Source: an uncultured Christensenellaceae bacterium
Lineage (GTDB): Bacteria; Bacillota; Clostridia; Christensenellales; UBA3700
Assembly: GCA_944381365.1 (NCBI GenBank)
Contig: CALWKW010000001.1
Coordinates: forward strand, 279,100-343,099
Length of the DNA: 64,000 nucleotides
Direction: 5' to 3'
Part shown: positions 30,375 through 48,330 of the stretch, one piece after another
Position numbering within the stretch: the stretch's first letter is position 1
Layout: each line of letters starts with the position of its first letter
Notes under the pieces: generated by a model
What the model was told of the DNA's origin: nothing
Databases searched by the model: none
What the model saw: only the letters and a program-made list of their open reading frames with translations
Program-made: the position numbers and the translations under genes

Positions 30375-30716
30375 TCAGACTTTGTCATTATCTGAATTTT
30401 TTTCATACTCTTTGAATGAGACATTTGTATCGTCTTTTGAAAATTCGTCTTTTTCTTCTCTATCTTCAAGAGTGCTATCTATTTTTTGAGTATCACTTAT
30501 ATCCCCCGATTCAGTCGAAACTTCGACATTCTGTTTTGAAGGATTTTTCTTGAGAATACCCGCTACCGTAAGCAAACTCAAAAATGCCATCGTGACTTCG
30601 TTTATATAAGGTATATCCACTCTTATGCTGATTGTCTGCAAAAGTACCATTACGGCACTAGCTACCGATACCCAAAATTCATAACTTTTGAGTTTTTCTT
30701 TGATGTTTTCTTTCAT
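30375..30716 (-). CDS. Holin, phi-LC3/phage_holin_1-like
   Basis: MKENIKEKLKSYEFWVSVASAVMVLLQ...LLTVAGILK has two TM segments followed by an acidic tail. AAAGGAG lies 5 nt upstream of the ATG at 30716, and there is an ATGA overlap with the upstream ORF. Confidence 0.7.
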   Translation of the reverse strand: MKENIKEKLKSYEFWVSVASAVMVLLQTISIRVDIPYINEVTMAFLSLLTVAGILKKNPSKQNVEVSTESGDISDTQKIDSTLEDREEKDEFSKDDTNVSFKEYEKNSDNDKV

Positions 30717-30955
30717 ACACACTCCTTTGTTTTCAACTTTCCTTTGCTGAGAATACTCCTCATTTCATCGTGAATCTTGTCTATATTCTTGTTCATAGTG
30801 TTCATATACGCAAGGTCCTGAGATAAAGCCGATATAGTATTCTGATATTTTACTTCTCTTGCTCTGCTGTCTTTTAATTCGAATATCAACAACACACAAA
30901 ACAACAACGCCCATATTCCGTCATCGACAGCGACTTGTACGAGCTTATCCCACAT
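30713..30955 (-). CDS. BhlA/UviB-family holin-like protein
   Basis: 80 aa. GIWALLFCVLLIFELKDSRAREVKYQNTI closely parallels the BhlA core (GPFAVLFCWLLFYV.K.SKERE.KLY) as I recall it. Confidence 0.7.
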   Translation of the reverse strand: MWDKLVQVAVDDGIWALLFCVLLIFELKDSRAREVKYQNTISALSQDLAYMNTMNKNIDKIHDEMRSILSKGKLKTKECV

Positions 30956-30964
30956 AAGTGCTTT

Positions 30965-31951
30965 TTATTGCGAAAGAATCTCAGAGGCAAGTCTTGTGTG
31001 ATACAATCCAAGATAATCTTTTAAGTCTCTATTGGCATTGAACATAATCTCCGCCACATTTTTGGGCAAAGACATATAAAAATCTCTCGCAAGCTGATAT
31101 CTTGCCTTGTAATTTTCGTCTTTTTCGCCCGTATAACCGTTTTGTTCTTCGAGGTTTTTTATTTCGAGATCATCTTTGATTCTGTTTGCCAACTGCTCTT
31201 CGATTGCCAGCAATCTCTCCTCTTTGTATTTGGCTTCTTTGGCTTTTAAATCGTTGTTGTATTTGTTGATATCGTTGATTTCTTTTTGTCTTGTTTCCAG
31301 CAATTTCTGAATTTCGCTCTCAAGCTCCTGTGCATATTTGAGATTGAGAGAGTCTATGGCGACTTTTTCTTCGTCTTTAAGTCTTTGTATTTCGGCATCA
31401 TAGCCGTTTATGTCTGAAGTCAAATCGTCTTTTATTTTCTGTGCTTCCTGTGCTTTCATTGAGTCCGCATAGTCTTCCTGACCTTGTTTTATAGACGACC
31501 TGTACATACCGTTCTGAACAAGCGAATTTTCGATTTGTTTTTTTATCTCGTCATATTCGCTGTCAAGCTTGTCATACTTTGTCTGACTTTCTGAAAGAGC
31601 ATTGTCCTTTTTTTGTTCGATTGAATCTATCTTTCCTTTGTATTCGGTATTGACTTCTTCTGTTTTGCCGCTCAACAAGTCTTCGTATTTTGAAGTAGTC
31701 TTGTCTTTTATGGTCTGTTCGTCATCGCCCTTGTATTCTTTGTAGACAAACTCTATTTCTTCCGGAAGCACATCTTCAATGTCCTCATATCCTTGACTGG
31801 GGACATAACTTTCCTTAAACTCTTCTTCCATTTTTTTGAGAGCCTCATTGAGTTCGTTTTGTTTGTCTACATAAGGCGAAATATCGGGTTTTTGTTCTTC
31901 ACCCGTAAAAAATTCTTTTACTTTTTGCTTAAAATCACTCCACCAGCTCAT
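30965..31951 (-). CDS. Phage structural protein, long coiled-coil (putative tail needle/plug or internal protein)
   Basis: 328 aa, E/K/D-rich with heptad-like repeats throughout. Strong SD (AAAGGAGAAAG). Function inferred from position only. Confidence 0.55.
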   Translation of the reverse strand: MSWWSDFKQKVKEFFTGEEQKPDISPYVDKQNELNEALKKMEEEFKESYVPSQGYEDIEDVLPEEIEFVYKEYKGDDEQTIKDKTTSKYEDLLSGKTEEVNTEYKGKIDSIEQKKDNALSESQTKYDKLDSEYDEIKKQIENSLVQNGMYRSSIKQGQEDYADSMKAQEAQKIKDDLTSDINGYDAEIQRLKDEEKVAIDSLNLKYAQELESEIQKLLETRQKEINDINKYNNDLKAKEAKYKEERLLAIEEQLANRIKDDLEIKNLEEQNGYTGEKDENYKARYQLARDFYMSLPKNVAEIMFNANRDLKDYLGLYHTRLASEILSQ

Positions 31952-32063
31952 TTTCTTTCTCCTTTATGTTTTTGCCTGAATTGTTTTGTTTCAGGGCTTT
32001 GAAATATTGTCCCAACTTGTATTTTGCAATTTCCTTTGCGATAAGTCTTAATCTTTTTGTCAT
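31935..32063 (-). CDS. Possible small basic ORF (42 aa) filling the only gap in the operon
   Basis: Manual translation gives MTKRLRLIAKEIAKYKLGQYFKALKQNNSGKNIKEKENELVE*. It starts 12 nt after the upstream stop, has a weak SD and is below the ORF-track cutoff. Confidence 0.25.
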   Translation of the reverse strand: MTKRLRLIAKEIAKYKLGQYFKALKQNNSGKNIKEKENELVE

Positions 32064-32075
32064 AAATATAGTTCC

Positions 32076-32459
32076 CTAAAGCGATAATATCGTGCTTTTT
32101 GTCAAAGCTCCCGTGAGTCTTACTCTCGAAGATGCGGTATTTGCCGAAGTCACAAACTCGAGCGTATGATACCCCTTTGGCAAATCTATCTCCTCTGAAG
32201 AAATCATACCTTTTCTTTGTGCTGCTTCTTCTCCGTCAATTCTGATGCTGCAAGTGATTTCTCCCTCTGAAGAATAATCGGGCATACATATAACTTCGCA
32301 TTCGCTTTTTCCGCCTGAAGAATAAACTTTTATGGCAAGTTCGCCTGTTTTTAAGTTTTGTTGCATGACATAATAATAAGTGTTTTTTGAGGACAATATA
32401 TGGTTTTGCAAACTTTCGCTTATCTCGTCAATCATATTTTCCATTCTCTTTATGTTCAT
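32076..32459 (-). CDS. Phage hypothetical protein (127 aa)
   Basis: GGGAGG lies 4 nt upstream of the ATG at 32459, and the ORF is tightly packed in the operon. No motif recognised. Confidence 0.55.
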   Translation of the reverse strand: MNIKRMENMIDEISESLQNHILSSKNTYYYVMQQNLKTGELAIKVYSSGGKSECEVICMPDYSSEGEITCSIRIDGEEAAQRKGMISSEEIDLPKGYHTLEFVTSANTASSRVRLTGALTKSTILSL

Positions 32460-32473
32460 TTTTCCTCCCAAGA

Positions 32474-33916
32474 CTATACCTTGTCGATAAAGTCAACTTC
32501 GAGTTTCGGCGGTCTAATATTTTCAAGATTATTGTCGCTTCTGATATAAAATACAAAACTTTGAGACTTGATATAAATGCTCTTTTTTTTCTCTTTGGGC
32601 GTCAGCAAAAACTCATGTCTTTCTCCGTCTGCGATAATGCCCAAGATATACTCATACGGCGTATTGTATTCGATAGTTCTTATGACTTTTACGCCGTTTG
32701 GCAAATCAAAATCAATCTCATTCGTCTGCCAATACTTTTGCATGGCTTTGCCAAAATAAAGACCGCTGTCATCGAGTTGGGCGACTTTGTCAAAGTCATC
32801 GGAAAGACCTATTACTCTGTTGTAATCGCTCATACTCAAAGTAATCAATCTTGAAAAACTTATGCCTCTTATGAGATTTACGCTTTTGTCGGCAAGGTCG
32901 AATATGAGCAAAATATTGTTGTCGATATCTCTTGTAAAAATGCCGTAATCGCTTGCGGCGGTATTTGTAAAAGACAATATATATTTGTGATGAGCATAAC
33001 ACGCATACACATCGTCAAATCCGCTTTTGAGCAAATCATTCGTCTTTATCGAATATCTCGACACATCGTAGCCGTCAAAAAGATATACTCCGTCTTCGCT
33101 CGCAAAAGCAATGTATTCGCCGCATTCTGTGATTGAAGGGGCAAAAATTCTTCCGCAAGAGGTATATACTTTTTTCATGGAAAATTGATTCTGGTCGGCA
33201 AAAGCCGTAAGTCTGTATATACCGTAGTCGCAGAAAATATACAGATAGTTGATAAAACTTTTTATTACTTTTACATTTCCCAAAGTTCCGTCAAAACCTA
33301 TATATCCGCCTTCATCGATAGATACATTCCAATTAAAAGGGTCAAAGTTGTCGCTAAACCAAAGGCTGTTTCGTTTACCCTTGACCACGGCATAAATTCT
33401 TTCGTTGTGGACACACAAAGCTTCGATTTGACCTTCGTATTGCACATCGCAAAGCTCGCCGTTTTTGAATACTTTTATTCCTTTTTCTCCTGAAAGAATA
33501 AGAAGATCGTCATCGTTGTAAAGATAATTGACGCCGCTTTTAAAAAAGTCTTGGCAATCGAGATGATGCCATTCTGTTTCGCCTATCGTGATATATTCAA
33601 GCCCGTTTTGATAGCTCACCGCAAGCGTGCTTTTTATCTCTCCCCCGACATTCATTTTTGTGGCAAAGAGTCTTTTGTCGCCTTCTATCTTGGGAAGAAC
33701 AGGAAGAATGGTCTCTCCCAATTTGAGCTCGTTTATTCCAAAAGAATTGACGAGTCTTCCGTTTTTAAAGCTGAAATTATATACGCAATCCACATAATCG
33801 CAAGGCAAGTTTGAAGTGAGTTTTGTTTCGTCATAACCTTTGAATCCCGAAAGCATGACCGTCTTACGCTTGGGTTTTGGAAGCGAATATTCTTTGTCGT
33901 AAAATATCATAACCAC
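32474..33916 (-). CDS. Phage structural protein, 480 aa, beta-rich repeat protein (putative tail hub, P22 gp10-position analogue)
   Basis: Recurrent aromatic/Gly beta-strand-like repeats (e.g. YLYIFCDYGIYRL, GEYIAFASEDGVYLFDG). Its position and size match the hub gene of P22-type modules. Inference only. Confidence 0.5.
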   Translation of the reverse strand: MVMIFYDKEYSLPKPKRKTVMLSGFKGYDETKLTSNLPCDYVDCVYNFSFKNGRLVNSFGINELKLGETILPVLPKIEGDKRLFATKMNVGGEIKSTLAVSYQNGLEYITIGETEWHHLDCQDFFKSGVNYLYNDDDLLILSGEKGIKVFKNGELCDVQYEGQIEALCVHNERIYAVVKGKRNSLWFSDNFDPFNWNVSIDEGGYIGFDGTLGNVKVIKSFINYLYIFCDYGIYRLTAFADQNQFSMKKVYTSCGRIFAPSITECGEYIAFASEDGVYLFDGYDVSRYSIKTNDLLKSGFDDVYACYAHHKYILSFTNTAASDYGIFTRDIDNNILLIFDLADKSVNLIRGISFSRLITLSMSDYNRVIGLSDDFDKVAQLDDSGLYFGKAMQKYWQTNEIDFDLPNGVKVIRTIEYNTPYEYILGIIADGERHEFLLTPKEKKKSIYIKSQSFVFYIRSDNNLENIRPPKLEVDFIDKV

Positions 33917-34458
33917 CTTCTCGGCTTGATTCTTATCTCGCCTTTTTTTCTTGTCGCCGTCCTCATGTCTTCTTTGAATCTTTCAGAATACATTACGGAC
34001 TGTTCATACATACCCTCGATGAGGCTGTACTCTGCACATATTCCCAAAGCAAGCGTCTTTGCACTTATGATAGGACTTATAGGACACTGTTCGTCAATCT
34101 CTATGTCCACGGGAAGATAGGTGTATTTTACGAGGGCTTTTTTTATGTCTTTGTTTTCGAGCACGCACTCTGTGGGATTCATTCTGAAATTGGTATAAAT
34201 ACCGTTTTTTACATTTTTGACGGAGAGTATTTCCAGCACTCTGTGAAGCAACTTTTCATAACTTATGTTGCCATTGTCAATCTCTACTTCCTCTGTTTCT
34301 GTGAGAGGGATATAATCTGTCGCTATCTCTTTTATGACAAGATTGGCACATTTGACCAACAATTTGAGTCTGGGGTGCTGTGCCGTTTTGTTGTTGACAG
34401 ATGCGTCCTCATCGCCGAGATATGTAAGAGATAATTGTATAGCTTCTTTTAATTCCAT
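33907..34458 (-). CDS. Phage structural protein, 183 aa (putative head-tail adaptor)
   Basis: Strong SD (AAGGAGAGAAAAATG), downstream of the MCP and overlapping the next gene by 10 nt. Function inferred from position. Confidence 0.5.
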   Translation of the reverse strand: MELKEAIQLSLTYLGDEDASVNNKTAQHPRLKLLVKCANLVIKEIATDYIPLTETEEVEIDNGNISYEKLLHRVLEILSVKNVKNGIYTNFRMNPTECVLENKDIKKALVKYTYLPVDIEIDEQCPISPIISAKTLALGICAEYSLIEGMYEQSVMYSERFKEDMRTATRKKGEIRIKPRRWL

Positions 34459-34477
34459 TTTTCTCTCCTTATGATAA

Positions 34478-34501
34478 AAGGGTGAGTGTCACCTCACCCT
34501 T
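34478..34501 (-). terminator. GC-rich hairpin inside the structural operon (partial terminator/attenuator or RNA stabiliser)
   Basis: AAGGGTGAG-6 nt-CTCACCCTT (9-bp stem) lies in the 49-nt gap after the 104-aa gene. It is followed on the minus strand by only a short T stretch. Confidence 0.45.
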
Positions 34502-34507
34502 ATGGGA

Positions 34508-34822
34508 CTAAAGTCCTATGCCGCTCATTGTCTTTTCAAACAAATTTTTCATATACTCTTGTTCTTGTCGAATATTTTGTTGTTCGATTTCTTTTAATAT
34601 GCGTTCTTTGTTTTTTACTTCGCTCTTCAGCGTATAGTCTACGGCTCTTTTGTCGAGAGTTTTGTATGGAAAAGTGAGCTGATAAGAAGGATGACTTTTT
34701 GTATTGTGAAGCTCATAGCTTTTCGTATCCCCGTTGAAGTATATTTTGTAGTCTGCGTCAATACTCTTTATCCGATTGGCTATGTCAAACAAATCATCTT
34801 TTATCTCTATCAACTTTTCCAT
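34508..34822 (-). CDS. Phage hypothetical protein (104 aa; possible decoration/head-completion protein)
   Basis: Start moved to the internal ATG (MEKLIEIKDDLF...) because the 184-aa version overlaps the MCP gene. Coiled-coil-like C-terminus. Confidence 0.5.
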   Translation of the reverse strand: MEKLIEIKDDLFDIANRIKSIDADYKIYFNGDTKSYELHNTKSHPSYQLTFPYKTLDKRAVDYTLKSEVKNKERILKEIEQQNIRQEQEYMKNLFEKTMSGIGL

Positions 34823-34908
34823 ATTTATCCCTCTTTTTCCGTATGACTCTCTTTTTATACAAATGCAAATGCTTTTAATCGATTGACAAAATTTATCGAC
34901 AAAAAATG

Positions 34909-36081
34909 TTATTGAGCGGTAATACCCGAAAGCTTTGCCTGACCGATAGGCTTGTCGCAAATCATATCGGCATACTTGACGAGTGTAGCACTGTATGTCG
35001 CACTGCCCGCTTTTTGCTTGATTACCTTGCCGTTGTCGCCCTCGAGCCATCTCCAATCGCAAAGCTGATGCAACTTGAAGTCCTGACTGTTGAGCAAATA
35101 CATCGTACCCTTTTCTACAAATCTGTCTGCGATAAGAGGAATACCGTTGTAGGACAAAGCCTTAAAACCTCCGTCAAGATTCATATAGTCGATATTGGTA
35201 CGAGTGAGAGCAAGATAGTCGAGATATGCTCTTCTTACATCATACGAGCATACGATAAAGTCAATCTGACTTCCCGCTACTTCATCGATATAGTCGATTG
35301 CACTCTGAATTTTTGCGGTAGAGATAGCACCCGTATTTGCATAATGTTTGGGCTGCAACCAGCTTCTGCCCTCTCTCGACAAACCGTAAAGCTCCTTGTC
35401 TGAGAATATAGCTCCAAGACCTGTGAGTTCGTTTTCCTTTGAGCCCTGAACCGTAACGGTATCGCCGTCCTGAATGCTCGAAGACACGCTTGCTGCCACG
35501 GTAATTGTATCGTTTACTCTGTCTACTGCGGTAATTCTTACGCCCTTGAGGTCGCTATAAACATTGCCGTTTGATTTTGCATAGACATCGATTACCATAC
35601 CTTCCATGACATTGCGTACGCTGTCCACTTTGATAGTATTTGCTGTCGAGCCTTCGGCAGAACATGTAGCCAATACGCCGCTTCCGTCTCCGTACAACAT
35701 TCTTCCGAGATTGAACTTGGAAGCTTTGAGCAAGCCTTCCATTTCTGCATTGAGAAGGTTTACGAATGCACCGGTATTTGACTGAGATGCTCTGATTGCC
35801 TTGTCTGACAACTCGATAGTACCATAAAGGTTTTTAAGTTCGAGCTTGAATCTGTCATAGTTGTTTGCTGCGGGAACAGGCAATTCGCCGCTTTCTGTAC
35901 CGGCTCCTATACCGCCGTTGATGCCATAGGGTACGAGCTTGATGATTTCCTTACCCCATACATCAGAGGTAGTCTGTTGTATTTTTGCCAAAAGTGGATT
36001 GACGCCTACATTGAGTTGGTCTGCCACTACATTCAAATAGACACTTTTCAGTGCCTTTTCTGCTGTTTCTAATGTTACCAT
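34909..36081 (-). CDS. Phage major capsid protein (HK97-fold type)
   Basis: 390 aa. The N-terminal pattern ...KSVYLNVVADQLNVGVNPLLAKI...GKEIIKLVPYG... and the G-rich E-loop-like region are typical of MCPs. AGGAGG SD, TAATG overlap with the scaffold-like gene, and position after portal and scaffold. Confidence 0.8.
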   Translation of the reverse strand: MVTLETAEKALKSVYLNVVADQLNVGVNPLLAKIQQTTSDVWGKEIIKLVPYGINGGIGAGTESGELPVPAANNYDRFKLELKNLYGTIELSDKAIRASQSNTGAFVNLLNAEMEGLLKASKFNLGRMLYGDGSGVLATCSAEGSTANTIKVDSVRNVMEGMVIDVYAKSNGNVYSDLKGVRITAVDRVNDTITVAASVSSSIQDGDTVTVQGSKENELTGLGAIFSDKELYGLSREGRSWLQPKHYANTGAISTAKIQSAIDYIDEVAGSQIDFIVCSYDVRRAYLDYLALTRTNIDYMNLDGGFKALSYNGIPLIADRFVEKGTMYLLNSQDFKLHQLCDWRWLEGDNGKVIKQKAGSATYSATLVKYADMICDKPIGQAKLSGITAQ

Positions 36082-36716
36082 TATATCCTCCTGTTGTTGA
36101 GCATAGTTGTGATTACTGCCCCCGCCTCTGCTATGCTCTTAGGTCTCGAAGGCGGAGTGAGTGTGATTTGTCCTCTGGAAGTTATGGACTTTGGCGGCAT
36201 AGTCTTTTGCAATCCGTCAAGATATTCATCGACTATGTTTTGTCTGATGCTTTCGTTGGGGTAAATATATTCTTTGATAAAGTTTTCGTCCCCTGCAAGC
36301 TGCTGAGGCGATACATATTGTTTGCACAATACTCTCAACAAAGCGATTTCAAGACAATTATCTTGTCTTTGCAAGGCTTTATCAGAGATTATTTCATTCC
36401 CGATAGCATTGGCAAATTGCTTTGCCAAAGGATAGGTGCTCAAAAAAGCATTGACTTTGTCCTGCCAATCTTCTTTGTCAAATACCGCTTTTTCTTCTTT
36501 TTCAGGAGTGTCTGAAGTTTGCTCCTCTTCATTCTCGGTATTTTCGTCTGTGGTCAAAGGATTTTGTCTTTGCTCTTTGGTATCTTCTTTGATTTCAGTT
36601 TCCAAAGTCTCATTTTCTTCCTGAGAAGGTATATCTAAGGCTTCCTTGATCGTTTCTTCGGAAGCGGGTTGGGCTTGGTTTTGCGTTTGCTGTGTATTTT
36701 TATCTTTCTTTTTCAT
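36081..36716 (-). CDS. Putative scaffolding protein
   Basis: 211 aa with a very acidic low-complexity N-terminus, located between the portal and MCP genes. Positional inference. Confidence 0.5.
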   Translation of the reverse strand: MKKKDKNTQQTQNQAQPASEETIKEALDIPSQEENETLETEIKEDTKEQRQNPLTTDENTENEEEQTSDTPEKEEKAVFDKEDWQDKVNAFLSTYPLAKQFANAIGNEIISDKALQRQDNCLEIALLRVLCKQYVSPQQLAGDENFIKEYIYPNESIRQNIVDEYLDGLQKTMPPKSITSRGQITLTPPSRPKSIAEAGAVITTMLNNRRI

Positions 36717-38574
36717 ATTGCTCCTCTGTCTTTTGCAAACCGTCTGTCATGAGTTTTGCAAGTTTATGCTGTTTGATATGCTCGTCTAGCAAGGCTTTGA
36801 GTTTTTCGTCTTTGAGTTCGAGCAAAGCTTTGAGATGCTCTTCTATGTGCAAATCGTGGTCGTCATAATCCGCTACCTTCAAATCTTTCTTTCCCGTTTC
36901 GAGATTTTCTTTGAGAGCTTTTTTGCGATGACTCTCGTCTACATCTCTGCCCGACTCCCAGTTGCCGAATCCCAAAATCTCAAGTATCTTGACTTTGTTT
37001 CTTGGCGATATCTCTCCGTTTTCGCCATTGAAAATACCCATGCTCACCAAGTCAAGCACCATCTTTCTTCTGTTTTCCAAAGTATCTGTAAGCTCGTTTT
37101 CGTTGTCAAACACAAGGTCATCGCTTCTCAAATCGCTTGCCGTAAAATATGCAAGTTCTACTTCTCCGTTGTCTCCCGAAAATCTCTTTACTCTCTTTGT
37201 CGTGCAATATTGCTTATAAAGTCTCAGCATTTGCTCGCATATATGTTTGACTGCGTTTCTCAACGAATTCGTAGCAATGCTCAATCTCGTATCGTCCTGC
37301 TCGACCAAAAGTCCTATCGCTTTACCTGACAATTGATTGTAGACATTTGAATATTTGCTCAATTCGCTTACGCCCGACATGGTAGTAAACTCTGAGAGTA
37401 TTCTCTCTTCTTCATACTGAAAGTCCGCAGGCACTTGTCCCACTTCCAAAAGTCTGGGCGGAGTCGAGCCTTGTCTGTATATGAGTACTTTTCCTGGGGA
37501 AAGTCCCTCTTCTTCGAGATTGTCGGTATCTATCGAGCCGTCCTCAATAGTCATTACTCCCATGGCAAGTCTGTTCATAAACTCGTGTTTTCTGTTTTTG
37601 ACGGCATTGTATGCTCTTTGCAAAGGTATAAGTCTTTCGATTATGCTCGTGCCGTAAAAACAGCCTATTTTGTCAAGACATATCGTCTTTGTAAAAGGAT
37701 AACCTCTTTGCTCGTTTTCCTGATTTATATACGGCAAATCGCCATAATACACAAGCTGATCTCCAGCTACGATTATGAGTTCGCCATTGGGTTTTTCCGA
37801 TGTGGGACGGCAATATTTTTCTATCACGATACACATATCGTGAGCCACGCTGTCTATCATATTGGGAAAACTTGCGTCATATCCGAGTCCGCCGCCTATC
37901 TGTGCATTGTCGAGAGAAAAGACATTGACATCTTCGCCTTTTACCTCTATGCCCCATATATCCTTTACTTCGTCCACATGATATGCTTTTGCGTGTATAA
38001 TGCTTTGACAATCGTTGATATCCGAAGTAGTAAGGCTGTCGGGAAAAATCTCATAAGGCGGCACGACAGTGACTTCCACATCTCCTTCTTTTACTGCCTT
38101 TTTGTTTTTTGCAAGTCCGATTACTCTTCCCTTGTCTGCCGACCATACCGTTTTGAAAAAACAAGTTCCCGTGACTTCGCTCCAAGTGCTTGCCACATTG
38201 AGCAAAGACGCTATTTTGTTTTCTTCGCAAAGTGCTTTGACAATCTGCGTAGAAAGTTTTGCAGTATGCACATCGCTGTCATCGCTGCTGAAAGGTCTTA
38301 CGCTCACGCCGCATTTGAGTCTGTTGAGTTTTGCAAGACGGGTTTCTACGATTGATGCAATATGGTTGTACACCTCACGCTCTTGCCAGAAATATTGTTT
38401 GCCATACTGTTCGATATCGCCTACGGGAGAAATCTCGGCATATTGATTGCCGTTGTAGAAATTCATATTGAGACGCCACTGAAGCTCGAGAGGTTTTCTT
38501 TCTTCTCTTCTGCGTTGATAATCCTTTCTTACCTCATTGACGATATCTTCTTTGAATTTATCATCTTTTATCAT
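36700..38574 (-). CDS. Phage portal protein
   Basis: 624 aa. The N-terminal LELQWRLNMNFYNGNQY motif is typical of portal proteins. It follows terL. Confidence 0.85.
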   Translation of the reverse strand: MIKDDKFKEDIVNEVRKDYQRRREERKPLELQWRLNMNFYNGNQYAEISPVGDIEQYGKQYFWQEREVYNHIASIVETRLAKLNRLKCGVSVRPFSSDDSDVHTAKLSTQIVKALCEENKIASLLNVASTWSEVTGTCFFKTVWSADKGRVIGLAKNKKAVKEGDVEVTVVPPYEIFPDSLTTSDINDCQSIIHAKAYHVDEVKDIWGIEVKGEDVNVFSLDNAQIGGGLGYDASFPNMIDSVAHDMCIVIEKYCRPTSEKPNGELIIVAGDQLVYYGDLPYINQENEQRGYPFTKTICLDKIGCFYGTSIIERLIPLQRAYNAVKNRKHEFMNRLAMGVMTIEDGSIDTDNLEEEGLSPGKVLIYRQGSTPPRLLEVGQVPADFQYEEERILSEFTTMSGVSELSKYSNVYNQLSGKAIGLLVEQDDTRLSIATNSLRNAVKHICEQMLRLYKQYCTTKRVKRFSGDNGEVELAYFTASDLRSDDLVFDNENELTDTLENRRKMVLDLVSMGIFNGENGEISPRNKVKILEILGFGNWESGRDVDESHRKKALKENLETGKKDLKVADYDDHDLHIEEHLKALLELKDEKLKALLDEHIKQHKLAKLMTDGLQKTEEQYEKER

Positions 38575-38789
38575 TGTTCGCCTCTTCCTTTGTTTCTCAT
38601 ATAAATATTCTTGGGGCTTTTGGGTACAAGGATTTTTGAGGTAGCGTCATAAAGATTTTGCATACAATCCTTGCAGAGATTGATATATCGGCTTTTGTCC
38701 ACGCCGTCAGGTACGACAGAATAATCTGCCATATTGGTGCAAACGCCCATATCGCATTTAAGTTTGTTTGTCTGAATTACTATCTTCAT
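38571..38789 (-). CDS. Small Cys-rich phage protein (72 aa, possible zinc ribbon)
   Basis: AAGGAG lies 6 nt upstream of the ATG at 38789. Cys pairs CDMGVC and CKDC. ATGA overlap with the portal gene. Confidence 0.5.
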   Translation of the reverse strand: MKIVIQTNKLKCDMGVCTNMADYSVVPDGVDKSRYINLCKDCMQNLYDATSKILVPKSPKNIYMRNKGRGEQ

Positions 38790-39057
38790 TTTTCTCTCCT
38801 TTTGTCATATCGTTTAGCTGAGAAATCAGCCTGAATTTTAGTTGTTCGAGCTGTTCATCGCTCAAGGCGGTAATATCATCGGTCTTGTCGATACCGAGTT
38901 CGACCATAGTTTTGACGGCGGTCATATCGGGAGGATAATGTTTGAGACTGACTTTTCTTTTCAAAAGTTCGTTGTCGCCCGAATATTCCTCTACTATTTC
39001 CTGAATATCATAGCCGACCGCCTTGCGATAAACGGCCTTTTCTATTTCTTCATTCAC
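38758..39057 (-). CDS. Small phage protein (99 aa), possible terminase small-subunit-like/DNA-recognition protein
   Basis: GTG start with GGGAGG 5 nt upstream. The KHYPPDMTAVK segment resembles the PPD motif I recall in some TerS proteins. Weak evidence. Confidence 0.4.
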   Translation of the reverse strand: MNEEIEKAVYRKAVGYDIQEIVEEYSGDNELLKRKVSLKHYPPDMTAVKTMVELGIDKTDDITALSDEQLEQLKFRLISQLNDMTKGEKNEDSNSDKQT

Positions 39058-39077
39058 TTTTTCCTCCCTTGAGAGAG

Positions 39078-40505
39078 TTATATTTTTTGCCGTTTATTAA
39101 GTTGTTTTATAAGTTTTTGTTTATCTTTTTGTATTATGGTGGGCTTTAAGGAAGGAAGTTTTGTCGCTTTTGGTTTTGTACATAGATAATAACGGAGGGC
39201 ATCGAGTGCGTGGTCATCTTTTTTTATCGGTTTATCTCCCTTTCCCCACCAATAAGTTTTGAGTTCTCTTATAAGGTTTGTACAATTTGAAAATATCTTG
39301 ATTTTGTCTTCTGAAAAAAAACTTTTGACCTGAGCTATACCCGAAAAAAGCTGTTTGTTGACATTTGTATTGACGAGTATGTTTCTGTCATAAAAAAGTT
39401 CTGATACGCTTTTTTGACTTGCGAGAGTATGCTGATCCGCCGCACTGTCTATGAGTGCCGACAATCTTCCTTTTCCGTCTCTGTGCCAATTAAGTTTTTG
39501 AGCAAGTTCGTGAATTTTTTCTGCGTGATAATCTATGTCCTTTCCCGCCATATACCATTCCCCAACCACATACACGGTTCCGTCATAGTCCACCGCAAAA
39601 AACAAACACGCCAAAGGATTGTTGAGTCCCGGGTCGATAGAGATATTGTCCTGCCATTCAAAAGGGATATCAAAAGGCTCTATGACATGTCTGTTTTGGT
39701 CAAATTCTTTATAGACAATGCCTTCTGCCTCGCAAAATCTTCCGAATCTTCTCGAAGCAAGCGTATCTTCGTCAAGGCATTTAGAAAGAGCGTCAACCTC
39801 ATTTTTGTCAAGAAAAGGATTGTCCGCCCACTCTATATGTTCGTGCCATGTTTCATCGTCTTGTTTTGAATTGAGATATATCTCGTCATACACCCAAGTC
39901 AGTCCTTTTAGAGGTGTCATTGTGCCCCACACTTCGCCTCGTCTGTCCAAAACTCTCATTCTGCATTCGTCATAAATATCCTTTGGCGGCTCTTCGTCAA
40001 ACCACACAAAGTCAAGCGATGTTCCCTGAAATTTTTCTCTGCCTTGGTCACAGCTCTTAAAAGATATTTTGGACACTCCGCCAAATATGTTTTTTATGAG
40101 AATATAATCTATAATTCCGTATTCGGCAGATGCTTTTTTGCCTGACGACATTACAATATCTTCTATCCAATCGGGATTGAGATAACTCAAAAACTTGCTT
40201 TGAGCGACATCTCTTTGCACCTCATAAGACAAAGATACTATCCAGCCCGACACATTTTTTCTGTTTTGTCTGTACGGATGAATTCCTCTCGCCCACCATA
40301 CCGCTTCTACAGCTCCGCACTCTGTTTTTCCGCTTCTGTTTCCGCCAAAAACCCACCTGTTTCTTTTTTGACATTTATGGAATATGAGTTGTTTTTCATG
40401 GACTTTTTCGCCTGTATTATAATGCGATAATTTATCTCCCGCCTGCCTTCTTGCCTGTTCTTTTTCTATGGCTAGAATTCTTCCGAGTATTTGCTTTTCT
40501 GTCAT
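39078..40505 (-). CDS. terL: Phage terminase large subunit
   Basis: 475 aa with Walker A FGGNRSGKT, Walker B LDFVWFDEEP and a C-terminal RNaseH-like nuclease region (D-rich motifs). Confidence 0.9.
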   Translation of the reverse strand: MTEKQILGRILAIEKEQARRQAGDKLSHYNTGEKVHEKQLIFHKCQKRNRWVFGGNRSGKTECGAVEAVWWARGIHPYRQNRKNVSGWIVSLSYEVQRDVAQSKFLSYLNPDWIEDIVMSSGKKASAEYGIIDYILIKNIFGGVSKISFKSCDQGREKFQGTSLDFVWFDEEPPKDIYDECRMRVLDRRGEVWGTMTPLKGLTWVYDEIYLNSKQDDETWHEHIEWADNPFLDKNEVDALSKCLDEDTLASRRFGRFCEAEGIVYKEFDQNRHVIEPFDIPFEWQDNISIDPGLNNPLACLFFAVDYDGTVYVVGEWYMAGKDIDYHAEKIHELAQKLNWHRDGKGRLSALIDSAADQHTLASQKSVSELFYDRNILVNTNVNKQLFSGIAQVKSFFSEDKIKIFSNCTNLIRELKTYWWGKGDKPIKKDDHALDALRYYLCTKPKATKLPSLKPTIIQKDKQKLIKQLNKRQKI

Positions 40506-40608
40506 AATTCGTCATAATAAATCCACAATTTTTGATATATTGAACAAAATTGTATTGTAAAAATAATAAAATTAGAATATAATTAATATATTACTTAGCG
40601 AGGTTTGT

Positions 40609-41361
40609 ATGAAAAAACTTATACTTGTCACATTGCTTCTTGCCATGCTCATTGTACCCTGCATAAGCTGCGGTACTGCTTTGGCTGAAGAAGACGGAAA
40701 TATCTATTATTACACAGCGAGCGAAATCCCCGTGTTTTCCGACACACAAGGCGGAACTCCTCTTTACTATATCCCTTCGACCTATGCCTATAAATTTTTG
40801 AGCGAAGTACAAGACAGCGATTATATCAAAATCGAGTACAACGGCAAAGAAGGATATATCAAAAAAGACCGCCACAAAAAAGAAAATCAGGTAAAACTCG
40901 ATTGGAAAGACACTTATTACTACAACTTTACTTTCAGTATTACTCCCGAAATCGTCACTTTGTACAAATCATCTGACATAAACGCTTCGGGACAATATGT
41001 AAAAAGCTCTGTTGCTATCAACAAGGTTTACGGATACACCTATACCCTCAAAGATAATGTAAAAGAATTTTATTTTCTGATAGAGTTTACCAGCAATGAA
41101 GTAAAGGACACAAGGTATGTCAAAGCAAGCGATACCACATTAAGCGGATTCACATTGGACGAGATTCCTCAGAATGAGTATTATTTGCAAGAGATTACTC
41201 CCGAAACTCCAAGCGGCGATACCGATACCGGCAATACTGACGGCATCCAAGAGCCTACAAACAATCTCGAAAGATATCTTCTTATCACCGTAATAGCCGT
41301 ATTGTGCGTAATCATTGTGGTATTAATTTTTATTCCAAACAAGCACCGCAAAAATAACTGA
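40609..41361 (+). CDS. Secreted, C-terminally membrane-anchored protein with SH3b-like domains
   Basis: Signal peptide MKKLILVTLLLAMLIVPCISC, SH3-like segments (...DYIKIEYNGKEGYIKK...) and a C-terminal TM (LLITVIAVLCVIIVVLIFI) followed by a basic tail. Confidence 0.55.
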   Translation: MKKLILVTLLLAMLIVPCISCGTALAEEDGNIYYYTASEIPVFSDTQGGTPLYYIPSTYAYKFLSEVQDSDYIKIEYNGKEGYIKKDRHKKENQVKLDWKDTYYYNFTFSITPEIVTLYKSSDINASGQYVKSSVAINKVYGYTYTLKDNVKEFYFLIEFTSNEVKDTRYVKASDTTLSGFTLDEIPQNEYYLQEITPETPSGDTDTGNTDGIQEPTNNLERYLLITVIAVLCVIIVVLIFIPNKHRKNN

Positions 41362-41376
41362 CATAATTTTTTGCAT

Positions 41377-41408
41377 AAAAAAAGCCGTAGCAATACGGCT
41401 TTTATTCT
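41377..41408. terminator. Bidirectional intrinsic terminator
   Basis: AAAGCCGTA-gcaa-TACGGCTTT is flanked by an A-run and a T-run, between convergent genes. Confidence 0.85.
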
Positions 41409-41427: not shown

Positions 41428-42003
41428 CTAAATCATTGCACTGCTCTCAGCTTTTGCCTCCGATGCCATTGCCACATTTGCCATAGCACAGACAAATTGT
41501 TTTGTCTTGTTGTCGCAGGTATTTGCTTTGACAAGAGAATTTTTTTGAAGTTGAGCCATATTGACTTCGTTGAGTCTTATGAACAGGCTGTCTCTTGCAT
41601 ATCTTTTTTCCAGCCACGCTTCGTCATACCCTTTTGCTCTCAATATTGCCGAAAAAGATTTTATGGCAAAAGCATATCTTCTGAAGACAGTCCTAAGGCA
41701 TATTCCCAAAATATCTGCGATGTCTTCAAAACTTTTTTTGTCTATGTACTTCATTTCGAGGATCTGCCTGTATTTGGGTTTGAGGTCTGCAAGAGTGGTG
41801 TCCACAATCACTTTTGCGTTTATCAAAGCCTCCTTGCGTTTGTTGTTGTCGATAATTTTTTGCATAAGGTCTAATGTGTTGCCCGCATAGGAAAAACTGC
41901 CAAGAGCCATAGTCATTGTGTAAGAATCTATCGATTTGACTATCTTTGGCAAAATCCTATAAGATGCGAGAAGACTTTTGGACCACATCTCTTGATTCAT
42001 CAT
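41428..42003 (-). CDS. Sigma-70 region-4-type HTH regulator (ArpU/DUF1492-like phage late-gene activator candidate)
   Basis: YRQILEMKYIDKKSFEDIADILGICLRTVFRRYAFAIKSF is a region 4.2-like HTH. Start set at the ATG at 42003 (GGAGGTGAT upstream). Confidence 0.6.
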   Translation of the reverse strand: MMNQEMWSKSLLASYRILPKIVKSIDSYTMTMALGSFSYAGNTLDLMQKIIDNNKRKEALINAKVIVDTTLADLKPKYRQILEMKYIDKKSFEDIADILGICLRTVFRRYAFAIKSFSAILRAKGYDEAWLEKRYARDSLFIRLNEVNMAQLQKNSLVKANTCDNKTKQFVCAMANVAMASEAKAESSAMI

Positions 42004-42073
42004 ATCACCTCCGTTTACACTCAAAGTATATTACAAAGGGTTAGGGAAAATCAATCTTTTATGACAATATTTT

Positions 42074-42087
42074 TGAACATTTGTTCA
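42074..42087. promoter_or_regulatory. SOS-box-like palindrome TGAACATTTGTTCA (GAAC-N4-GTTC)
   Basis: A perfect 6-2-6 palindrome 71 nt upstream of the regulator start. It matches 11/14 positions of the Firmicutes LexA consensus CGAACATATGTTCG. An extra TGTTCA half-site lies at 42095-42100. Confidence 0.35.
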
Positions 42088-42240
42088 TATTTTTTGTTCA
42101 CATTCCTCAAACAATCACATATCCAAAAAAATTCAAAAATTTGATTTTGAATTGCATTTTTATCTCAAAAACCTTTTTGGGGCATTTAAATCTATAAATA
42201 AATTTGTTTATTATTCTTAAAATATTCAATATCTTTTGAT

Positions 42241-42273
42241 AAAAAAATCTCCCTGAAAGAATATTCAGGGAGA
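42241..42273 (-). terminator. Intrinsic terminator of parE-parC
   Basis: Minus strand reads TCTCCCTGAA-tattct-TTCAGGGAGA followed by TTTTTTT. Confidence 0.85.
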
Positions 42274-42327: not shown

Positions 42328-44805
42328 TCAGTCTATTATATTGTGTCTTTTTGCGTCTCCGATAGTCATGATATTTTTGTCTTTTGACACTATCTTTATG
42401 ATATTCTTGCCTTTGTTTGCTCTGTCTTCGATACCTATCTGTTCGGTATTTATGCTCTTCACTTCGCCGTTTGGCAAGACGATAGCAAAATCATAAGGAG
42501 TCGTCACGACATCAATGAATACGCACTCGCCTATCTTGTTGTCGAATATTTTGTTGCCTTTTGCCATTCTCATTCTGGGTTCGATAGTGCCGAGTATAAT
42601 TCTCTTTGCGTATCCGCTGTCCATTACCAAGACTATTTCGCCGCTTGCGTCTGTGTGCGTAGCAAAAATAAGTTTGTCGTCATCATCGAATCTCATGAGT
42701 TTTACGCCGCTTGCCTTTCTGCCTTGCGTGGGAATATCGTCATAACTTGTAAGTGCCATGCCGTTTTGCGTAACAGACAAGATAAAGCCTCTTGCCTCTC
42801 TCGTTCCGTCATCGACTTCGGGCGGAGTCACAAGTTCGACCGCAACAAGTCTGTCGTCTTCGTCCTTGAAAGCCATTGCATTCGTCAATGATTTTTTGTC
42901 AAAAGTAAATTCCTCGAGATCGACATATTTTGCCATACCCATCTGTGTTATGAGCAAAAGCTTTTTGCCCTTGACTTCGCTTTCTGTAAATATCTGAACA
43001 AGTATGTCATCGCTGTCTACCTTGGCAAATTTGTTTACGCTTATGCCTCTGCTCTTCCACTTATCCTCTCCTAGAGCCGATACGGGGAATGTCACGGCAT
43101 TGCCTTTTGATGTGATACCAAAGAGCATTGCTTCGCTGTCAGTCTTTATTACCTTCTTGGACAAGTCTTGTGCATTGCAGTTGACGATACTCTTGGATGC
43201 GAGGTTGTATCCTTTGTCAAGCACGAATTTGATATTGCCGTTGTAATGCAATACTACAAAACCTTCTTTCTTGATTTTTGCGTTGAGGTCTACTTCTACA
43301 TCTGCGATAAGACTTTCGTGAATGATTTCGCTTTGTCTAGGCGAAGGATATTTCTTCTTGATTTCCAAAAGCTCTTTTTTGACCACATTGTATTGTTTTG
43401 TCTTAGAATTGGTGATACCCGTAAGATATTTTATCTTTTCCATCAATTCTTTTTGTTCTTCGAGCATCTTGTTTATATCGAGCTTGTTGAGTCTTTTGAG
43501 AGGTATATCCAATACGGCAATCGCTTGTTTTTCCGTAAGGTCAAATCTCATTCTCAATCTGTCTTTTGCTTCGGTATAAGTCTTGCTGTCAAGCACTATA
43601 TCCACTACTTCTCTGATGTTGTTTACGGCTTTGAGAAGACCTTCGAGAATATGCTCTCTCTTTTCTGCCACATCGAGGTCGTACTTGCTTCTTTTATAAA
43701 TGACTTCTCTTTGGAATTCTACATAATGCTTTATTATGTCCAAAAGTCCCAGCTGCATAGGACGATTGTTGACGATTGCGGTCATATTCGCACTGAAGTT
43801 TGTTTGCAAATCCGTCTTTTTGAGAAGGAGGGCTATCATAGTATCGACATCTGCTTCTTTTTTGAGCTTGATTACACAACGCATACCCGTTCTGTCGCTC
43901 TCGTCTACGATGTCCTGTATGTTGCCAAACAAATCTTTGTTGATATCTCTAAGTTCGTTTATTCTGCTGAGCAAACTTGCTTTGTTTACCTGATAAGGGA
44001 TTTCTGTTATGACAATATTTGTTCTGCCGCCCTCGTCTTCGGTATGAATTTTTGCTCTTACGACAATTTTTCCTTTGCCGGTAGAATATGCGTCATAAAT
44101 ACCTTGGTTGTCCACGATAATTCCGCCCGTGGGAAAATCGGGGGCAGGAATATATTTCATCATCTCTTCCAAAGATATGTCTTTGTTTTCGATATAAGCC
44201 ACTATACCGTCAATGGCTTCGCCTAGATTGTGAGGCGGGATATTTGTGGCAAGGCCTACTGCAATACCGTTGGCTCCGTTGACAAGCAAATTGGGCACCC
44301 TGCTCGGCAAGACTTCAGGCTCTTCGAGGCTGTCGTCAAAGTTGAGCATCATAGGAACGGTGTCTTTGTCGAGATCCCTCAGCATTTCGAGTGCAAAAGG
44401 CGTCATTCTCGCCTCTGTATATCTCATTGCCGCAGCACTGTCGCCGTCCACGCTACCAAAGTTTCCGTGTCCGTCTACCAGCAACATCTTTGTATTGAAA
44501 GGCTGTGCGAGCTTTACCATTGCACCATACACCGAGCTGTCTCCGTGAGGGTGATATTTACCAAGACAATCACCGACAATACGGGCAGACTTACGATGAG
44601 GCTTATCCGGAGTGGTGCCAAGCTCAAGCATTGTATAAAGAATTCTTCTTTGTACAGGCTTTAATCCGTCTTCTACTCTCGGCAATGCTCTGTCGAGTAT
44701 TACATACTCGCTGTAAGGGAGCATGGAATCATGCAGTACCTGTTCAAATGTACCGTCAATGATTTTGGAATTGTCTACTTCTTCTACCTTTTTGTTTTTT
44801 GCCAT
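42328..44805 (-). CDS. parC: Type IIA topoisomerase subunit A, ParC-like (topoisomerase IV)
   Basis: 825 aa with [19 protein letters not shown] and the active-site AAMRYTE motif. I could find no GyrA-box (QRRGGKG) in the C-terminal domain, which favours ParC over GyrA. Confidence 0.7.
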
Positions 44806-44899
44806 ATTAATCCCTGTATGTATTTTGAGTATCCGACTTTATACATAGTATAAAAATCGTACTTTCTTTTTAATTGAATCAAAGCTGAATATCTATGTA

Positions 44900-46891: not shown

Positions 46892-47025
46892 ATTTCTTCC
46901 TATAAAATTCCGAAAAATCGGTTCGCCCAAAGGCATTTGCTCAGTATTAATATATCAATTTTGATAAGCTATGTTTGTAATTAAGCTATTTTATAATTAT
47001 GTATCTTGACATGCTTTTTTCGATT

Positions 47026-47994
47026 TTATTCTTCATCATCGATAGATAAGTCATCTTGCAAATCCACTTGAGGGTTCAAAATATTTTCTATCCAATCAAG
47101 CACATCCTGATATACTTCTTCTTTATTAAGTTCGTTCAAAATCTCGTGTCTAGATTTGTTGTAAAGCTTTATGTCGATATTTTTCATATTGAGTCCGACA
47201 TACATATCATACAATTCTCTCACGAGTTTTCCCATATTGCCCACGGGGTCATTGTCTCCGCTTATGATAAACACAGGCAAATCTTTTGATATCGACTCAA
47301 GATTTTCTTTTTCATAGATTTTGCTCAAGCCGTCAAAGAAGTATTTATAAAATCCTATGGACATCGTATAATTGCAGAATTTGTCATTATTATACTTTTC
47401 ACAAGCATCGACATCTCTGTTGAGCCAAGCATTTGCTCTCTTTTCTTTTTTAAAAGGTTTGTCATAACCGCCGAAAGAAAGTTTTCTTATGAGATTTGCA
47501 GGCTTATCTTTTCCATACAATTTGAATTGCAGATTAGCCACAGCCTTGCCCATTTTGACATCGGGCGTATCCATTTTTGCCGAGCCGCACAATACACAGC
47601 CTTTTATATCCTTGCTGTGCTTTTCTATATAACCTTGAGCAAGGAAAGATCCATAACTATGTCCGAATAAGAATATCGGCAATTCGGGAAATTTATTTTT
47701 AAGATACTCTGTGAGTACAAAAGCATCGTCAATCGTATCGAAATAAGTATGTCCTTCAGGTACCTTGCCGAGATTTTCCTCCCCAGCCGTCAAACCATGT
47801 CCTCTGTGGTCATCTCCTGCCACCACAAAACCGTTTGTCGCCAAAAACGATGCAAACTCATCGTATCTGTCTATATATTCTACCATACCGTGAAGTATCT
47901 GAACTATTCCTCTTGGCGAACCTTCGGGAATCCAAAACGAAACGCTGAATTTATAGCCGTCTCGTCCGTTTAAAATTTCTTTAAATTTTTGCAT
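47026..47994 (-). CDS. Alpha/beta hydrolase (lysophospholipase/monoacylglycerol-lipase-like)
   Basis: HG oxyanion motif (ILHGMVEY) and nucleophile elbow GHSYGS. Start set at the ATG at 47994 (GGGGGAAA upstream). Acidic C-terminal tail. Confidence 0.8.
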   Translation of the reverse strand: MQKFKEILNGRDGYKFSVSFWIPEGSPRGIVQILHGMVEYIDRYDEFASFLATNGFVVAGDDHRGHGLTAGEENLGKVPEGHTYFDTIDDAFVLTEYLKNKFPELPIFLFGHSYGSFLAQGYIEKHSKDIKGCVLCGSAKMDTPDVKMGKAVANLQFKLYGKDKPANLIRKLSFGGYDKPFKKEKRANAWLNRDVDACEKYNNDKFCNYTMSIGFYKYFFDGLSKIYEKENLESISKDLPVFIISGDNDPVGNMGKLVRELYDMYVGLNMKNIDIKLYNKSRHEILNELNKEEVYQDVLDWIENILNPQVDLQDDLSIDDEE

Positions 47995-48142
47995 AATATT
48001 TCCCCCAACAAAATTATACATATACATTATATAGTATAATTACAAATTTTTCAACCCCAATTATTGTGTTTTTGTCAACTTTTTTAATATTTAATATTTA
48101 AAAACTCTTTAAAATCAGCTTATATTAAGATAATTTATTATT

Positions 48143-48157
48143 TTGAACATTGTTCAA
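48143..48157. promoter_or_regulatory. Palindrome copy 1: TTGAACATTGTTCAA (7-1-7)
   Basis: A perfect 15-bp inverted repeat in the 520-bp hydrolase/murG intergenic region. Confidence 0.4.
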
Positions 48158-48330
48158 TAGTTTTATTACTGATATATATTTATATCTTTATACAGATTCT
48201 TTCCTCTATAAAAAACTATAAAAATTTGTCATTCTTGCTTTAATTAAAAATATACTGCCCTAATCAATCCATTAAATTTGCCATATTATAACAGTAATAA
48301 AGATATATTTATATCTTTAATTATAAAATT

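Follow-up and report, generated by a model that had tools for sequence, protein, structure and literature searches.

The 64-kb window analysed here (all 64,000 nucleotides of a stretch of contig CALWKW010000001.1, from an uncultured Christensenellaceae bacterium) contains a syntenic 12-kb cluster of phage-like genes – the island – that includes terL and genes for a portal, a capsid protein and a BhlA-family holin. It is flanked by housekeeping genes, among them gyrB/gyrA, murC, murG, and genes for tRNA synthetases, RF-1 and RNase J. Upstream of terL lies a gene for a small regulator with a sigma-70 region-4 helix-turn-helix (HTH), and its predicted sigma-A promoter is preceded by a palindrome resembling the SOS box to which LexA binds in Firmicutes (Table 1). 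An earlier, sequence-only reading of this DNA suggested that DNA damage could de-repress the regulator, which would then fire an operon running from terL to the holin gene. Here, we compare the island with its orthologues in other uncultured Christensenellales. The box is strongly conserved, and we favour an explanation in which a LexA operator controls the sigma-A promoter of the regulator and, through it, the terL-to-holin operon.

The palindrome reads TGAACATTTGTTCA on the plus strand at 42074-42087 and TGAACAAATGTTCA on the minus strand (42087-42074), so that the site, GAACAAATGTTC, is a palindromic dyad of the form GAAC-N4-GTTC. It matches CGAACATATGTTCG at 11 of 14 positions, exactly as the sequence-only reading had stated, and the degenerate consensus CGAACRNRYGTTYC at 12 of 14. 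A further half-site reported by that reading is also present, at a spacing of 7 nt rather than the 8 nt given there; it and the left arm of the box make up a direct repeat, TGAACAAA...TGAACAAA (42095-42100 with 42082-42087). Within the window the palindrome alone is not beyond chance expectation: GAAC-N4-GTTC is observed once with 0.74 copies expected, at least one copy appears in 56 of 100 shuffles, and neither the palindrome nor AACAAATGTTCA with one mismatch stands above chance by within-window statistics. No second copy of the box occurs anywhere in the 64 kb, even with one mismatch allowed. Conservation across orthologues is therefore the sole basis on which the palindrome can be called significant.

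That conservation is extensive. In the first-round set (34 orthologous loci; 20 GTDB species representatives; all uncultured Christensenellales) the sequence (G/A)AAC-AAAT-GTT(C/T)A stands at the regulator promoter in every one of the 34 loci, and it is the most conserved element upstream of the regulator in 20 or more species. The sequence-only reading had tied its SOS-box proposal to conservation of the site in orthologous islands, and the finding of 34/34 supports it. In an upstream alignment of 28 distinct sequences from 33 loci, the ten bases of the core, AACAAATGTT, never vary (2.0 bits per position), whereas the flanks drop to 1 bit or less and the information is gone within 4-5 nt. The information profile, T-A-Y-R-AAC-AAAT-GTT-Y-A-N-A, is symmetric around the dyad centre, the pattern expected of a dimeric binding protein. 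Because synonymous sites between the box-carrying lineages are saturated (dS 1-2), this invariance reflects selection for a cis-element that a symmetric dimer binds. In 11.1 kb of sequence upstream of the regulators there are 13 copies of GAAC-N4-GTTC, versus two in 475 kb of other fetched sequence, an enrichment of ~280-fold.

The box also stays with the regulator regardless of which gene lies upstream, be it gyrA or a gene for an Rrf2 regulator, a leucine-rich repeat protein or a CDP-OH transferase. The interval upstream of this box is an insertion hotspot, yet the box-promoter unit has stayed intact. In one lineage two genes without a Pfam match (209 and 169 aa, on the opposite strand) lie between gyrA and the regulator (L003, 6572-7698; L004, 2356-3482), and in L005 three metabolic genes and the Rrf2 regulator gene have been inserted at this place.

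Several features of the box are those of a LexA operator. The dyad AAC-N4-GTT is the top-scoring one in 39 of 40 Firmicutes lexA promoters, with the consensus TACGAACATATGTTCGTA (PMC2248561), and the same dyad is invariant in the 28 distinct orthologous upstream sequences; the conserved T-A at box positions -4 and -3 agrees with the extended Firmicutes LexA consensus. Outside the invariant core the orthologues vary by group. The window's group A and group D have GAAC...GTTC (the group D box being CGAACAAATGTTCA), groups B and C have AAAC...GTTC, and L001 and L002 have GAAC...GTTT. The form GAAC-N4-GTTT is found at lexA, recA and ruvC of C. difficile (PMC4234289), and the AAAC-N4-GTTC of groups B and C is its reverse complement. 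Judged by sequence, the variation among the orthologous boxes is that tolerated by Clostridial LexA. The box was scored against the Firmicutes and Clostridial LexA consensus. As to the additional half-site, a second, directly repeated copy of the box's left half-site lies 11-25 nt away in the window, L005, L014, L019, L046 and L050; a (T/C)(G/A)AACAAA direct repeat lies 11-13 nt upstream of the box in the window, group C and L046, and in L050 the repeat lies ~25 nt downstream, as GCGAACATATG.

Three more distant loci were reached through a capsid-protein search (L040 and L041) and a profile search (L050). The L040 and L041 regulators are 25% identical to that of the window, and the L050 regulator (P0161) is an L040-like sequence (E 3e-33 in the profile search). 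A perfect 14/14 CGAACATATGTTCG is present at 3880-3893 of L040, starting 7 nt past the -10 of a TTGCCG-16-TATACT promoter, and at 253-266 of L050, starting 6 nt past TTGTAA-17-TATATT; L041 has CGAACAAATGTTCA upstream of TTGCAA...TATAAT. The chance expectation of the 14-mer is ~2e-6 per 480 bp. In L040 and L050 the box thus covers the predicted start site of a promoter different from that of the window. Its centre, its flanks and the promoter context have all changed; what persists is the LexA consensus, in the textbook position over the start site. No further box is present in the window and no motif is shared with the terL promoter, and the box is therefore the input of the regulator rather than its target. 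Phylogenetic footprinting supports the SOS-box reading well, short of proof, and we infer that LexA is the protein that binds the box and that DNA damage would induce the regulator.

Other observations weigh against this interpretation. In the window 19 nt separate the end of the box from the downstream -35 hexamer, and the box centre is near -62 from the predicted start, an atypical place for steric occlusion. All close lineages share an invariant central AAAT in a fixed orientation, which is stricter than the RNRY of the LexA consensus. L046, a short, low-coverage contig, has lost the right half-site, only direct repeats being left, and the most distant homologues (L047-L049, 35-39% identity) have no LexA-like box and carry tandem TTTTTCACC repeats, so that the regulatory input differs between lineages at greater evolutionary distance. 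L040 and L050 also have a strong, boxless proximal promoter; LexA may therefore not be the sole control point, which argues against the suggestion of the sequence-only reading that the box is the only one. A search of the window and 464 kb of fetched loci for signatures of LexA, RecA, UvrA, UvrB, RuvB, RecN, DinB and UvrD gave none. Lastly, gene position is all that ties the regulator to activation of terL.

Groups A, B and D have 18-19 nt between box and -35, whereas group C, in which a deletion of ~12 nt has moved the box, has 7 nt. The group C arrangement is comparable to that of sigN on plasmid pBS32, whose LexA-repressed sigma-A promoter has an inverted repeat just upstream of, and overlapping, the -35 (PMC6751061). 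Repression from -62 might involve occlusion of an UP element, or cooperation with the extra half-site or a degenerate second site. A weak second box, TCAY-N4-GTTT, overlaps the -35 in groups B, D and E; it was rejected as too degenerate, and it is deleted in group C. An argument for an activator from helical phasing was likewise set aside, the distance from box to -10 being 41-43 nt in most lineages versus 30 nt in group C, with a scatter of +/-1 nt that makes the argument weak. In the boxless loci L047 (572-671) and L049 (2900-3000), TTTTTCAC(C) is repeated in tandem 2-4 times, about every 11 nt, immediately upstream of a TTGACT-17-TATAAT promoter, and such repeats suggest that these lineages have a different regulatory input. 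The second, proximal promoter of L040 (3990-4067) and L050 (380-456) is near-consensus, with a conserved inverted repeat, AATTCAATGCCCCTGAATT, in its 5′ untranslated region (5′ UTR), and looks like a second control layer.

Table 1. Predicted features of the island and its regulatory region, in window coordinates (ORF, open reading frame).
Feature	Position	Strand	Basis and remarks
Structural and lysis operon	30375..40505	-	ORFs, Pfam, PHROG, synteny in orthologues
Gene for 115-aa membrane protein	30375-30722	-	Last gene of the operon
BhlA holin gene	30713-30955	-	PF10960, 2.5e-13, 50.2 bits (cut-off 22.6)
Gene for DUF7934 protein	30965-31951	-	
Major capsid protein gene	34909-36081	-	phrog_14242, 8e-59; followed by 104-, 183-, 480- and 131-aa ORFs
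P22-like portal gene	36700-38574	-	Followed by a 211-aa ORF
terL (T4-type TerL)	39078-40505	-	Followed by 99- and 72-aa ORFs
Upstream region of terL	40506..40554	-	Presumed target of the regulator; alignments, promoter scan
Divergent gene for 250-aa protein	40609..41361	+	Signal peptide, C-terminal transmembrane anchor; promoter TTGTAA-17-TATAAT at 40555-40583
Hairpin terminator between convergent regulator and 250-aa genes	41380..41403	.	Plus-strand prediction; T-run after the same stem on the minus strand
Regulator gene	41428..42003	-	190 aa from ATG 42000, 191 aa from ATG 42003; Shine-Dalgarno GGAGG at 42012-42008
Predicted sigma-A promoter of regulator	42025..42054	-	TTGATT (42054-42049), 18-nt spacer, TATACT (42030-42025); TGT just before the -10
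Putative LexA-type (Cheo/SOS) box	42074..42087	.	Core GAAC-N4-GTTC at 42075-42086; sequence, pattern search, orthologue conservation
Extra upstream half-site TGAACA	42095..42100	-	7 nt from the box
Terminator of upstream gyrA-like gene	42248..42273	-	Upstream limit of the regulatory region

The regulator is composed of a helical N-terminal domain, the sigma-70 region-4 HTH and a conserved C-terminal GYD-EW helix. The HTH proposed by the sequence-only reading is recovered by Pfam (Sigma70_r4_2, PF08281, 3e-10; Sigma70_r4, PF04545, 4.7e-6) and by PHROG profiles (phrog_36 'transcriptional regulator', 3.9e-15; phrog_1740 'RNA polymerase sigma factor', 1.3e-8; phrog_248 'transcriptional activator', 1.9e-6); its length, given there as 191 aa, is probably 190 aa, because the Shine-Dalgarno spacing and orthologues that start MNQE... 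favour ATG 42000. The proposed kinship with phage late activators of the ArpU/DUF1492/RinA type also held up, both in the profile matches (phrog_36, and DUF1492, PF07374, at 23.9 bits against a cut-off of 21.5) and in the place of the gene at the head of a packaging and structural module. The DUF1492 match is not independent, because the residues that it covers, 58-116, overlap the region-4 HTH. In all loci terL follows the regulator gene, with a single divergent gene in between. The close family of the regulator comprises 26 clusters at 90% identity and the wider full-length family 328 clusters at 50% identity (E <=1e-10), and no relative was found in GenBank phages, plasmids (including pBS32) or IMG/VR. 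The recognition helix of region 4 differs by lineage (RTVFRRY, RNVFRRQ, RSVFRWH).

Evidence for the remainder of a sigma factor is weaker. NCBIfam sigma models align to residues ~22-130 (mainly 60-130) through their C-terminal region-4 end, all far below their cut-offs; Pfam finds no Sigma70_r2 match, and no TcdR/UviA-family or other full sigma model of Pfam or NCBIfam matched, these profile searches including no direct comparison with the UviA sequence. An AlphaFold model built with 23 sequences is all-helical (predicted local distance difference test score 80.5). In Foldseek searches it gives target-normalised template modelling (TM) scores of 0.77-0.86 to region 4 of SigL, SigE, SigW, SigR, SigC and SigD, and weak full-length alignments with the extracytoplasmic function (ECF) sigma factors SigL, SigW and AlgU (E >=0.009, TM-score ~0.35). 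A sigma-2-like N-terminal domain is possible from the model. The regulator is thus of region-4 type and ECF-sigma-like, either a minimal sigma factor or an activator.

The -35 (TTGCAT, TTGCAA, TTGCTT or TTGATT) and -10 (TATACT or TATAAT) of the regulator promoter are conserved across all lineages, and the start site in the window – start sites here being predicted, not mapped – is near 42018. Since it has its own promoter and its own terminator, the regulator gene is monocistronic. The upstream gyrA-like gene ends at 42328, and an AT-rich spacer separates its terminator from the TGAACA half-site. The 5′ UTR of the regulator is only ~15 nt in the window lineage and is 100-160 nt in group C (L005, L011, L014) and group D (L010, L020-L025), where it starts with a conserved TGTAACCGCAAGGAAGAG or GGGTGTCGCAAGGAG; no Rfam family was matched on the long-5′ UTR loci L005, L010 and L011.

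The genes from terL to the holin form a single co-directional, tightly packed block, in keeping with the operon that the sequence-only reading described, and the BhlA/UviB-family holin that it named is assigned to PF10960 in the window and in L040. Every orthologous locus has the 250-aa gene, always placed between the regulator and terL, and the gene is fast-evolving; its L014 orthologue has a weak SH3_3 match, and immunity, receptor function or cell-wall binding are possibilities for its role. The 103-bp region between this gene and terL has a mean identity of 77% across lineages, with the -35 and -10 of the promoter of the 250-aa gene as its most conserved blocks. On the terL side, alignments and a promoter scan revealed no sigma-A -35 hexamer; there is an A-rich tract, and an invariant CGAATT abuts the ATG in all orthologous loci. 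No Shine-Dalgarno sequence precedes terL, although neighbouring genes have strong ones, and the terL mRNA may be leaderless. These features fit a promoter that depends on an activator or an alternative sigma factor. A promoter motif shared between the regulator and terL, which the sequence-only reading had thought worth seeking, did not emerge, AT-rich words being all that the two have in common. By eye, TGTCAYAA in the regulator promoter seemed to co-vary with TTRTGAC in that of terL, but L001 and L008 break the pattern and it was discarded. The invariant synteny and the absence of another regulator in the island suggest that the regulator acts on terL.

These elements can be joined in a simple scheme. 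DNA damage would activate RecA and lead to self-cleavage of LexA, whose loss would allow expression of the regulator from its sigma-A promoter; the regulator would switch on the non-canonical terL promoter, and the resulting expression of the 10-kb operon (terL, portal, capsid and further genes through to the BhlA holin) would lead to particle assembly, DNA packaging and lysis. The regulator is the only conserved regulator of a domesticated, podovirus-like cluster that resembles a gene transfer agent (GTA). For the chain from LexA operator through sigma-A promoter and region-4 regulator to the terL-to-holin operon, taken as one explanation, we estimate a probability of about 0.6. The island would produce particles, and DNA damage appears the most likely trigger of their production and of cell lysis.

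Alternative explanations concern either the protein that binds the box or the target of the regulator. The palindrome could be a functionless chance occurrence, as its single copy in the window, close to expectation, would allow; this is refuted by its invariance in 20 or more species at saturated divergence and by the enrichment at regulator promoters, and we discount it almost entirely. An unlikely candidate is another dimeric host transcription factor, an activator or repressor answering for example to growth phase or a nutrient signal, with the likeness to LexA being coincidental. The position of the box upstream of the -35 in most lineages is more typical of activator sites, the fixed orientation and invariance of the central AAAT would also suit such a factor, and particles of FpGTA, the GTA of Faecalibacterium prausnitzii, arise spontaneously in late stationary phase (PMC12946183). 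However, every phylum-wide invariant of the LexA dyad is also invariant here, and the variation is exactly LexA-like (GAAC/AAAC, GTTC/GTTT, and the shift in L040 and L050 to a perfect consensus at the start site). The ARG box, for instance, is TGAAT-N4-ATTCA, and by eye this motif, the Rex box, the cre site, the Spo0A box and the TnrA and WalR motifs all differ from the box at the invariant C and G of AAC...GTT and were rejected.

It is very improbable that the box is the regulator's own recognition site, used for positive autoregulation, such as an ECF-type 'GAAC' -35 read by region 4. Its profile is symmetric and palindromic, unlike a -35/-10 pair; a conserved -10-like partner with constant spacing is missing, the TGTCAYAA element being deleted in group C; neither the terL promoter nor any other part of the window has a related motif; and the box stays invariant while the recognition helix changes between lineages. 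What speaks for autoregulation is that ECF-type -35 elements contain AAC and that (T/C)(G/A)AACAAA direct repeats occur in the window, group C, L046 and L050. SigN, moreover, has an autoregulated promoter (PMC6751061). Finally, the box could be a genuine LexA site and the regulator could control the 250-aa surface protein or unlinked genes rather than the terL operon. Nothing experimental and no motif was found to link the regulator with the terL promoter, which could itself not be defined; yet the order of regulator, 250-aa gene and terL is kept strictly in all lineages, even those in which the island has moved, a near-consensus sigma-A promoter already serves the 250-aa gene and terL has none, and no other regulator is encoded in the island. 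We consider this target quite unlikely and prefer the terL-to-holin operon.

The island does not resemble an ordinary prophage. Pfam, PHROG and NCBIfam annotation revealed no integrase, replication or lysogeny gene among its ORFs, and no Cro/CI-type switch – as the sequence-only reading had also noted – and no second regulator. The same gene order is found beside gyrB-gyrA in the contigs of every regulator homologue examined and in 20 GTDB species representatives, and the hosts in that set are all uncultured Christensenellaceae, Christensenellales or 'Clostridia' metagenome-assembled genomes (MAGs). Between the window and L005, identities are 79% for GyrA, 84% for GyrB, 82% for TerL, 82% for the portal and 83% for the capsid protein, whereas the regulator (55%) and the 250-aa protein (37%) evolve faster. 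For TerL, portal and capsid protein the ratio of nonsynonymous to synonymous substitution rates (dN/dS) is 0.04-0.06 and for GyrA it is 0.03-0.04, which indicates purifying selection on the island at rates like those of housekeeping genes; the regulator has 0.12-0.17. Because it lacks integrase, replication and lysogeny genes and evolves as slowly as GyrA, the island is best described as GTA-like; it bears the sequence signature of a domesticated, vertically inherited element and not of an ordinary or recent prophage.

Relatives beyond this set give a more varied picture. In L040 and L041 the island lies across the murG-hydrolase-gyrB-gyrA block (window 42328-49593) from its side in the window, by AMP-binding and pseudouridine-synthase genes, and has therefore moved or been locally inverted with the neighbourhood unchanged. 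Capsid-protein relatives with 55-72% identity occur in L035-L039, which are IMG/VR contigs classed as viral, and one of these (L037, 27 kb) differs in its downstream genes, whose ORFs are of 516, 374, 946 and 365 aa; L035-L039 could be true phage relatives or other GTA-like islands mis-called as viral. The capsid-protein family as a whole has 6383 matches at E <=1e-10.

The element that carries the regulator is, in our opinion, a more interesting by-product of this analysis than the regulatory design, and a strong candidate for a Christensenellales GTA. To our knowledge, little is known of GTAs outside the Alphaproteobacteria. FpGTA, the first to come from a human gut commensal, was described in 2026, with no known regulator, and in the same study GTA-like random DNA packaging was seen in the Christensenellaceae MAGs HGM11616 and QANA01, with no locus or regulator identified (PMC12946183). 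The island is a candidate for the source of that packaging. More tentatively, and with somewhat less than an even chance, it would be the gut Christensenellales GTA and the source of the host-DNA signal in faecal virus-like particles, wired to the SOS response through one LexA operator and one sigma-like master regulator that fires, by itself, a leaderless terL-to-holin operon.

The island offers a concrete candidate locus with a simple switch of one operator and one regulator, and the regulator is a possible handle for inducing particles in culture or in heterologous hosts. If LexA control is true, lysis of Christensenellales and export of their DNA would be a direct response to gut stresses and SOS-inducing drugs. 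If the element is an SOS-wired GTA, DNA damage, including that caused by antibiotics, would lead to altruistic lysis and gene transfer in a heritable, health-associated gut clade, and its direct SOS wiring would be unlike that of the alphaproteobacterial GTAs and of PBSX.

Among known GTAs, FpGTA is close to the island by description: a chromosomal 10.5-kb operon in a gut Clostridia commensal, of the short-tailed-phage (podovirus-like) type and near-ubiquitous in its host clade, with TerS-like, TerL, portal, scaffold and capsid genes and conserved hypotheticals (PMC12946183). It differs in that its lysis and tail genes are in a second locus, whereas the holins here are in the same operon, and neither a regulator nor a LexA site is described for it (PMC12946183). 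The tectivirus GIL01 of Bacillus thuringiensis also has no CI repressor of its own, and host LexA bound at SOS boxes of an element promoter serves as the switch between lysogeny and lysis (PMC4551915, PMC6182141). Unlike the island, it is autonomous and needs the co-repressor gp7 and the LexA-like late activator gp6, neither of which is encoded here.

PBSX of Bacillus subtilis is an SOS-inducible, defective phage-like element of ~28 kb, myovirus-like, that packages host DNA and lyses the cell, and it is governed by an Xre repressor switch and the sigma-like late positive factor Xpf. It resembles the island as a Firmicute element with a sigma-like positive factor, and differs in having a CI/Xre-type switch where no Xre/CI gene is present here. 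The island appears to be wired directly to LexA rather than through an Xre/CI repressor.

The uviA-uviB-bcn locus of Clostridium perfringens plasmids pIP404 and pBCNF5603 is UV- and SOS-inducible, with a sigma-like activator (PMC4459074, PMC10467148) and a putative LexA site in the pIP404 uviA-bcn region (PMC4459074), and it uses a BhlA/UviB-family membrane protein for release. The UviA/UviB-style induction proposed by the sequence-only reading is thus supported as logic, and the regulator is only analogous to UviA, a member of the TcdR family of group-5 sigma factors that has regions 2.4 and 4.2, whereas the regulator matches no model of that family in Pfam or NCBIfam. The cargo also differs – a bacteriocin there, a capsid and DNA-packaging machine here – and in the island 11 kb separate the regulator from the holin gene, which stands at the distal end of the operon.

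The other close parallel is SigN (ZpdN) of B. subtilis pBS32, a small alternative sigma-like factor on a phage-related element with a GAAC inverted repeat. DNA damage de-represses SigN, which induces the genes of the element, and the cell dies (PMC6751061), the same logic as proposed here; sigN also has several promoters, as the regulator has two in L040 and L050. SigN is a proven sigma factor, whereas region 4 is all that is detectable by sequence in the regulator, and the two have no detectable homology, tblastn against plasmids giving only weak region-4 matches to unrelated sigma factors. Moreover, pBS32 is a plasmid, whereas the island is chromosomal and vertically inherited, and the window box lies further upstream (~-62). 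The likeness to the SigN and UviA systems is by analogy only, one of function and regulatory logic, and a circuit in which LexA restrains a sigma-like activator of a phage-like element is already known from pBS32 SigN and pIP404 UviA.

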